Virus record (IMG/VR): IMGVR_UViG_2802429244_000013
Span: 1 to 38,936 of that record
Strand: one strand, 5' to 3'
DNA: 38,936 nucleotides
Source: a virus
Lineage: Duplodnaviria; Heunggongvirae; Uroviricota; Caudoviricetes
A model generated the notes under the pieces. The model was not told where the DNA came from. It did not search any database and worked only from the letters and a program-made list of their open reading frames with translations. Position numbers and translations under genes: made by a program. The number at the start of each line of letters is the position of its first letter. The stretch's first letter is position 1. Below are positions 27,880-28,333 of the stretch, piece by piece.

Positions 27880-27908
27880 AAACAACAAAAAACCCGCCGA
27901 AGCGGGTT
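27880..27908 (-). terminator. rho-independent terminator of the hok transcript
   Basis: Minus strand aacccgc-ttcg-gcgggtt followed by TTTTGTTGTTTATTTTT, about 65 nt after the hok stop. Confidence 0.6.
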
Positions 27909-27973
27909 AAGTGCGGGTGCGTTGAGGATGCCTGACACATCAGAGGTGGCGGGGGTTTACCCCGCCTGGTCTC

Positions 27974-28129
27974 TTACTCCTCAGGTTCGTAAGCTGTGAA
28001 GACAGCGACCTCCGTCTGGCCGGTTCGGATTCGTACCTCGCAGAGGTCTTTCCTCGTTACCAGTGCCGTCACTATGACGGTTAAACAGATGACGATCAGG
28101 GCGATTAACATCGCCTTTTGCTGCTTCAT
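27974..28129 (-). CDS. hok: Hok-family type I toxin (HokD/RelF-like, 51 aa)
   Basis: MKQQKAMLIALIVICLTVIVTALVTRKDLCEVRIRTGQTEVAVFTAYEPEE matches HokD as recalled; AAGGAG RBS; conserved hok leader elements upstream. Confidence 0.85.
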   Translation of the reverse strand: MKQQKAMLIALIVICLTVIVTALVTRKDLCEVRIRTGQTEVAVFTAYEPEE

Positions 28130-28186
28130 AGCCTGCTTCTCCTTGCCTTTCGGCACGTAAGAGGCTAACCTACGTGTGCAAGTCAT
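28130..28186 (-). other. mok-like upstream reading frame in the hok leader
   Basis: ATG at 28186 opens a 19-codon frame (MTCTRRLASYVPKGKEKQA) running in-frame into hok; contains the conserved AGCCTCTTAC block. Confidence 0.35.
28143..28171 (+). promoter_or_regulatory. putative sok antisense promoter
   Basis: Plus strand TTGCCT (28143-28148), 17-nt spacer, TAACCT (28166-28171), antisense to the hok RBS region; same layout as the plasmid R1 sok promoter as recalled. Confidence 0.4.
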
Positions 28187-28252
28187 AGATATGGCCTCAG
28201 ATTAATGTTAAGCGTCTTGCAGGACGCGTAATGTTAACTGGGGCTTTTCTCT
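28178..28252 (+). ncRNA. sok: putative Sok-like antisense RNA
   Basis: Would start about 7 nt after the TAACCT -10 and run antisense across the mok start; 3' region ctggggcttttctc resembles the Sok 3' end as recalled. Confidence 0.35.
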
Positions 28253-28304
28253 ATCTGCCGTTGGTGTTCATGCCTGAGACAGATAGCCTCAAGCACCCGC
28301 CGCA

Positions 28305-28333
28305 ATTCTACTTAACTATCCTTTTCCCGCAAA
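28305..28333 (-). promoter_or_regulatory. putative hok mRNA promoter
   Basis: Minus strand TTTGCG/TTGCGG then 16-17 nt spacer then TAGAAT (plus 28305-28310), just upstream of the conserved GCTTGAGGCT leader element. Confidence 0.4.

Follow-up and report, generated by a model that had tools for sequence, protein, structure and literature searches.

We analysed a 38,936-nucleotide stretch of DNA (the window; positions 1 to 38,936 of the IMG/VR virus record IMGVR_UViG_2802429244_000013), which is a lambda-like prophage, and focused on a hok/sok toxin-antitoxin cassette at positions 27880–28333. A preliminary description, made from the sequence and its open reading frames (ORFs), had proposed that this span holds a complete type I locus of the hok/sok kind, and had named no strand. 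The span covers the cassette, with the −35 hexamer of the hok promoter at one end and the terminator tail at the other; the cassette lies on the minus strand. The motifs that had been listed (a ribosome-binding block, a conserved block, a tac element, an upstream ATG, a sok promoter and a terminator) are all present where they had been placed. The family matches of the cassette are far beyond chance: the Pfam model PF01848 (HOK_GEF) matched the hok ORF with E = 2.9e-23 (81.6 bits against a cut-off of 22), and the Rfam 'sok' model RF01794 matched positions 28298–28124 over its full length (1–157) with 109.5 bits against a gathering score of 59 (E = 3.3e-24). Because RF01794 models the sense strand of the hok mRNA leader (tac through to the hok AUG), its match falls on the hok strand rather than on the Sok strand. 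Together with the conserved elements described below, the Rfam and Pfam matches support the proposal of a complete type I locus.

All features of the hok mRNA are on the minus strand. A putative hok/mok promoter occupies 28305–28332 (−35 TTGCGG at 28332–28327, a 16-nucleotide (nt) spacer, and −10 TAGAAT at 28310–28305). We placed the first base of the mRNA at 28298, from the start of the Rfam model, and the predicted full-length transcript runs from there to ~27881, that is, from the tac element to the T run of the terminator. The tac element, GGGUGCUUGAGGCU at the mRNA 5′ end (DNA GGGTGCTTGAGGCT), spans 28285–28298, with an inner block, GCTTGAGGCT, at 28294–28285. A ribosome-binding site for mok, GAGG, follows at 28198–28195, and a mok-like ORF of 70 codons (27974–28186, ATG at 28186) is in frame with hok and ends at the same stop codon; at the level of the sequence, hok is thus overlapped from upstream by a mok frame with its own ribosome-binding site. 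The ucb block, AGCCUCUUAC (DNA AGCCTCTTAC), lies at 28157–28166, and the hok ribosome-binding block, CAAGGAGAAGCAGGCTATG, lies at 28145–28127, with the ribosome-binding site AAGGAG at 28144–28139. The toxin gene itself (27974–28129; ATG at 28129, stop codon TAA at 27976–27974) encodes 51 amino acids. A candidate dcb element, GUAAGAG, at 27971–27977 overlaps the hok stop codon. Further downstream are the fbi element, CCUCAA-C-GCACCC (DNA CCTCAACGCACCC; 27915–27927), which pairs with tac, and the intrinsic terminator of the hok mRNA (27881–27908), consisting of the stem AACCCGC-TTCG-GCGGGTT at 27908–27891 and a tail, TTTTTGTTGTT, whose T run extends to 27881. On the plus strand, a sok promoter at 28143–28171 (−35 TTGCCT at 28143–28148, a 17-nt spacer, and −10 TAACCT at 28166–28171) precedes a predicted Sok antisense RNA of ~71 nt at 28178–28248.

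To assess conservation, we took the best 80 viral-contig loci together with the 933W, PCN033 and window copies, which gave 70 distinct sequences. The best 80 viral-contig loci all encode a protein identical to HokD, and most of the 70 distinct loci are 88–99% identical to the window leader. The tac motif stands at the mRNA 5′ end in 67 of the 70 (with a HokD-identical or HokW toxin). The −10 hexamer of the hok promoter is kept in nearly all of them, with a spacer that is free to vary, and the hok terminator is kept in most related loci and replaced in 933W. Matches extend to complete E. coli genomes: 4950 of 5426 have some match, 1553 of 5426 match at least 80% of the query at a single place, and the best identity is ~96–97%.

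The predicted structure of the hok mRNA was likewise conserved. The minimum-energy fold of the full-length mRNA (28298–27884; −170.3 kcal/mol, z = −6.8) has both ends paired, with 5′ GGGUGC/UUGAGG pairing with CCUCAA/GCACCC near the 3′ end. The tac-fbi duplex comprises 12 pairs and one bulge at −21.5 kcal/mol, which was equalled by 3 of 1000 shuffles. Across 68 aligned loci, the sequence of tac is invariant and the helix is 100% paired (68/68), the only changes to its pairs being from G-C to G-U, with one further change at the bulged base. For the structure as a whole, 95.1% of cells in the alignment of 68 related sequences form a standard pair, as compared to ~36–43% when the partners are slid. 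Compensatory changes occur at 11 pairs, all in helices other than tac-fbi, a number reached by 0 of 500 shuffles. We conclude that the 5′ end of the mRNA is predicted to pair with the 3′ element. A hairpin at the mok start (28185–28178 with 28173–28166) was dropped as a feature, being 66% paired across the 68 loci and hence not conserved. Alternative pairings were also found: tac can form a local 5′ hairpin (28296–28286 with 28280–28270), and ucb is partly complementary to tac, to the hok AAGGAG site, and to GUAAGAG at the hok stop codon. The tac-ucb duplex has an energy of −16.2 kcal/mol (14 of 1000 shuffles as good), and in the fold of a 3′-shortened mRNA, CUCUUAC (28163–28157) pairs with GUAAGAG at the stop codon.

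We mapped the ends of Sok from the sokW annotation of phage 933W, and they agree with the geometry of sokC/mokC in K-12. The predicted fold of Sok (−28.7 kcal/mol, z = −4.5) has a single-stranded 5′ tail of 15 nt, a long hairpin and a U tail, and three positions of the hairpin have compensatory changes, in seven loci. The stretch from the sok −35 to the −10 is identical to that of 933W, in which replacement of the −10 AGGTTA (= TAACCT) using primer YO-421 abolished protection by sokW (PMC8621323). These features predict an antisense Sok that spans the mok start and has its own promoter and terminator hairpin. In the source assembly, a 57-amino-acid ORF was called at 28231–28404 on the plus strand (3643–3816 of locus L086), antisense to the hok promoter and leader; this ORF is probably spurious.

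The 51-amino-acid toxin is 100% identical to K-12 HokD, bearing out its earlier assignment to HokD/RelF, and is 92% identical to HokW, 82% to HokC and 35% to HokB; the PGAP label for the identical protein is HokD. In a 2026 preprint, the HokD peptide is reported to be toxic and hok genes to be enriched in prophages, and hokD mRNA to be edited by TadA, with a change of Tyr to Cys at position 47 that affects toxicity (bioRxiv 10.1101/2025.08.07.668861). A UUACGAA sequence at 27986–27992 (minus strand), around the Tyr47 codon TAC (27991–27989), resembles the TadA editing motif, and is kept in all aligned loci.

Since mok is in frame with hok, the preliminary description had raised the possibility of an N-extended Hok. 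The 70-amino-acid ORF is indeed there; the arrangement is not peculiar to this copy, however, but is the commonest one, because mok is in frame in 57 of 72 distinct related loci, in the annotated mokW/hokW and mokC/hokC, and in an R1-type locus on an IncFII plasmid. This prevalence speaks for the 70-amino-acid Mok-Hok protein as the functional toxin, in place of the 51-amino-acid Hok; but six near-identical loci have a 19-codon mok that stops at the hok ATGA and three have mok in the +1 frame, and mokB/hokB is also annotated as out of frame. Moreover, codons 2–3 of mok are highly variable, whereas the mok ATG and its ribosome-binding site are conserved in related loci, and hok keeps a strong ribosome-binding site of its own. 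The fusion therefore cannot be required, and we consider it very improbable that it is the toxin. Because near-identical cassettes differ in the mok frame, the sequence of Mok and the fusion are unlikely to matter; judging from the aligned loci, the conserved property is translation through the mok region. One sub-group of cassettes (L007, L017, L026 and similar; L087) is marked by a deletion of 2 nt following the mok ATG and by an insertion of 1 nt in the small GAAA hairpin, GGACCGAAAGGTC. These changes convert mok to a 19-codon ORF ending at the hok ATGA, and the sok −35 to TTGACC. By sequence, these cassettes are a compensated hairpin variant with a predicted difference in coupling geometry.

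Codons 2–3 of mok coincide with the first six nucleotides of Sok (28183–28178), and this was the most variable hexamer of the whole transcript among 67 related loci. There are about ten discrete alleles among cassettes that are otherwise 90–99% identical, and the allele of the window, ACTTGC, is rare. These alleles could be specificity classes, such that a given Sok would recognise the hok mRNA of its own prophage and no other; where several prophages with identical toxins share a cell, each could then be controlled or triggered independently. We regard this as doubtful. The entropy of the hexamer is about that of the unconstrained promoter spacer, making neutrality, or lack of constraint, the simplest reading and leaving diversifying selection unproven. 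Three pairs of copies in the same genome, too few for a conclusion, had one identical and two different alleles. The high variability of Sok nucleotides 1–6 is only a mildly new point.

The cassette sits among genes typed by family as those of a lambda-like prophage. A gene for a CI-type repressor (35953–36342, plus strand) is divergent from the genes on the hok strand. On the minus strand, the order is YdaS/YdaT-type genes (YdaS/cro-like), a DnaT-domain replication protein, a lambda-P-like gene, DUF1627, Ead/Ea22, DUF551 and the hok cassette, followed by DUF1367, YbcO, a DUF1133/Q-like antiterminator, an ORF6N gene and the large terminase subunit. The genes from YdaS/cro-like through P, DUF551, DUF1367 and YbcO to Q share the strand of hok, which points the same way as the early rightward operon and occupies a nin-like region just upstream of Q. 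The upstream gene is DUF551 (28420–29046, E = 2.6e-22), as had been suggested earlier, and neither the ORFs of the window nor a family scan contained relB or relE near the cassette, which does not have the relBE-hokD arrangement. No terminator was predicted between DUF551 and the hok promoter. Positions 25420–32046 of the window are identical to contig PTSP01000001.1 of the NCBI assembly GCA_002965905.1, which was reached by way of the DUF551 protein; searching one genome per species for an exact copy of the leader gave no match.

Based on the family matches, the conserved elements, the predicted pairing of the mRNA ends and the position of the cassette, we put the probability at roughly 85% that this is an intact type I toxin-antitoxin cassette of the hok/sok kind (hokD/hokW type), in the nin-like region of a lambda-like prophage and co-directional with its early rightward operon. 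We infer Sok transcription, 3′ trimming, the coupling of mok to hok, toxicity and the trigger from the plasmid R1 model and from experiments on hokW-sokW, and the local sequence is consistent with each step. A weak constitutive promoter would produce a stable hok mRNA of ~415 nt, in which pairing of tac with fbi would leave the full-length form neither translated nor bound by Sok. Slow trimming of the 3′ end would remove fbi, and refolding would expose the mok ribosome-binding site, with translation of hok expected to depend on that of mok. The short-lived Sok, made from the promoter inside the leader, would pair across the mok start, blocking translation of mok, and hence of hok, and triggering cleavage of the duplex. 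If the supply of Sok stopped, the 51-amino-acid Hok would be made, insert in the inner membrane and damage it. By analogy with hokW-sokW, we propose that Sok would be lost on prophage induction and that Hok would then speed lysis and phage release. Antiterminated early transcription, running head-on against the sok promoter, might also lower Sok; this idea is our own, and was suggested by the orientation of the genes and by the fact that none of the predicted terminators lies between DUF551 and the hok promoter.

The proposed role is modelled on the hokW-sokW locus of prophage Sp5. HokW arrests growth, whereas the cassette with its own sok promoter is harmless; mutation of the sok −10 makes the cassette toxic, sokW supplied in trans partly rescues, and RNase III and Hfq contribute (PMC8621323). 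In a response to mitomycin C that depends on RecA, sokW RNA vanishes and the inner membrane acquires HokW, ~1 h before endolysin appears, and deletion of hokW-sokW delays growth arrest and halves phage release (PMC8621323). If the prophage in the window is inducible, the cassette would thus probably affect the timing of lysis and the yield of phage, as for Sp5.

Several observations weigh against an intact cassette with this role. A consensus promoter scan flagged neither the hok nor the sok promoter, both of which are weak matches to the consensus; the hok promoter was passed over because its −35 matches at only 3 of 6 positions. As predicted promoters of this copy, both are supported instead by conservation and by the published mutant of the related locus. 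The ucb-dcb duplex, a part of the R1 model, was no better than shuffles here (660 of 1000 as good), and the minimum-energy fold of the 3′-shortened mRNA has the local 5′ hairpin in place of tac-ucb. In addition, the two loci are placed differently in their phages: in 933W, hokW is flanked by L0139 and L0136 at the far end of the map (58.4 kb of 61.7 kb), whereas the window copy has DUF551 on one side and DUF1367/YbcO/Q on the other, an arrangement also seen in K-12 Qin, PCN033 and STEC005. The role of hokW may therefore not transfer. Lastly, the native chromosomal hokA, hokB and hokC have been reported to give no post-segregational killing and no activation by rifampicin (cited in bioRxiv 10.1101/2025.08.07.668861).

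The behaviour of hokA, hokB and hokC would also fit a cassette that is intact yet physiologically silent, in which Sok always exceeds the hok mRNA and which is carried as a selfish or neutral passenger of prophage recombination. The cassette does act as a mobile module with mosaic flanks. By contrast, nearly every nucleotide of the transcript is conserved across the 68 distinct loci, with compensatory changes, which argues for ongoing selection on the regulatory RNA, and the 92%-identical hokW-sokW has a measurable phenotype. We therefore think a silent passenger quite improbable. Less improbable, though still unlikely, is that the main role is not to help lysis but to act in prophage addiction, by post-segregational killing, or in defence, by aborting infection by another phage. 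Prophage loss, or shut-off of host transcription by an infecting phage, would then lead to decay of Sok and production of Hok. Addiction is the classical role of plasmid hok/sok, and many genomes have several copies of the cassette (median of 2, and up to 11 places). Against such a role, hok is not enriched beside defence systems (bioRxiv 10.1101/2025.08.07.668861), and the sole prophage copy that has been tested gave a lysis and release phenotype (PMC8621323). On balance, we favour assistance of lysis as the role of the intact cassette.

We also noted features of the neighbouring DNA. At 28340–28423 on the minus strand, a 27-amino-acid hydrophobic ORF, MSWPEAFTTVGIAMAVALVVYSICRRG, runs from an ATG that overlaps the stop codon of DUF551 (ATGA) to a point shortly before the hok promoter, and is preceded by a GGAGG ribosome-binding site of its own. 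The block of homology that the window shares with 933W and PCN033 starts exactly at this ribosome-binding site, suggesting that the ORF travels with the hok cassette. It is present in ~18 of the 80 viral-contig loci, had no family match, and is unannotated by PGAP. Between hok and DUF1367, where K-12 and STEC005 carry rem, there is a 64-amino-acid ORF (27536–27730, minus strand), which had no Pfam or NCBIfam match. Its identity as Rem was rejected, since the two proteins are unrelated by comparison. Just downstream of the Q-like gene, at 25818–26016 (minus strand), Rfam matched the C4 antisense RNA (66.7 bits), the a1/b1 target (50.5 bits) and isrK (75.5 bits); an ORF6N-domain protein follows at 25154–25765 (minus strand). 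This region looks like an antirepressor control module of the P1 immI or Gifsy isrK type. No complete E. coli genome covers at least 80% of positions 24000–36000 of the window, the best covering ~50% at 93–94% identity, indicating that the prophage is a mosaic absent from that collection, though each of its modules is common.

Comparison with named systems placed the cassette closest to hokW-mokW-sokW of 933W/Sp5 (AF125520): an alignment of 534 nt, starting at the small upstream ORF and reaching fbi, shows 91.7% identity, and the same value holds for phage 933W, VT2-Sakai and numerous further Stx phages. The elements come in the same order, mokW is in frame and shares the hokW stop codon, and the 933W record annotates the stretch as mokW, hokW and SokW antisense RNA. 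There are four differences between Hok and HokW, all at the C terminus (TAYEPEE here, VDYESEK in HokW). The two loci also differ in the 5′ tail of Sok and codons 2–4 of mok (ACTTGC here, CTGAAC in 933W), and 933W lacks the GC-rich terminator of the window copy. Annotation of the hokW-sokW locus dates from 1999, and in 2021 Takada et al. demonstrated that it functions as a type I toxin-antitoxin (PMC8621323).

By contrast, hokD (relF) of the cryptic K-12 prophage Qin has relBE in place of all that lies upstream of the hok ribosome-binding site. Like the window copy, it sits upstream of the Q antiterminator region in a lambda-like prophage. Its toxin and coding DNA are identical to those of the window, and the identity extends to the AGGAGAAGCAGGCT ribosome-binding region and to the 3′ region at least as far as the fbi core, where the K-12 stretch that we compared ended. 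The alignment begins only ~15 nt before the hok ATG, because relE abuts there, and K-12 hokD is without a hok promoter, tac, mok start, sok promoter and Sok hairpin. The window copy, unlike that of K-12, retains a promoter of its own along with tac, mok, the sok promoter and hairpin, fbi and a terminator; the contrast with relBE-hokD drawn in the preliminary description thus holds, for the leader and for the 3′ element. Downstream, K-12 hokD is followed by rem, and the window copy by the unrelated 64-amino-acid ORF. We conclude that E. coli prophages usually carry the complete cassette, and that K-12 hokD, in its decapitated form, is derived.

Similarity to plasmid loci and to K-12 hokC is confined to shared blocks. 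For comparison we used an IncFII plasmid locus, which we take to be R1-type, as its Hok is identical to the R1-type sequence, which has exact 52-amino-acid matches in plasmids. A match on plasmid H70 was dropped as an R1-type comparator, being cut upstream by an insertion sequence element. With this stand-in for parB of R1, and with chromosomal hokC, the conserved leader blocks line up: both share with the window GCTTGAGGCT, the GGCAGA...AGCCCC arm, GAGGC...ATG (SDmok-ATG) and AAGGAGAAG-ATG, and the ucb block CCTCTTAC is present in all three, offset by 1–2 columns in the automatic alignment. Elsewhere the plasmid loci are divergent, such that only a 74-nt core reaches ~79% identity, and the Sok hairpin of the window is 18 nt longer than those of hokC and the R1-type loci. 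In the R1-type locus, 5′ GGCGCUU has a counterpart, AAGCGCC, in the 3′ region; this pairing was read by eye and missed by the duplex search. In K-12, the annotated sokC antisense RNA has the same spacing from the mok ATG as the predicted Sok has here, and the 3′ end of K-12 hokC has been lost to IS186. Overall, the locus is of a type that is already known and experimentally tested, and is an ordinary, close allele of hokW-sokW. The gene caller of the source assembly took the 70-amino-acid Mok-Hok ORF as the toxin gene, and it and PGAP mark only the toxin or that ORF, omitting Sok, mok and the regulatory RNA elements; the proper label is hokD/mok/sok, a type I toxin-antitoxin of the hokW-sokW type.

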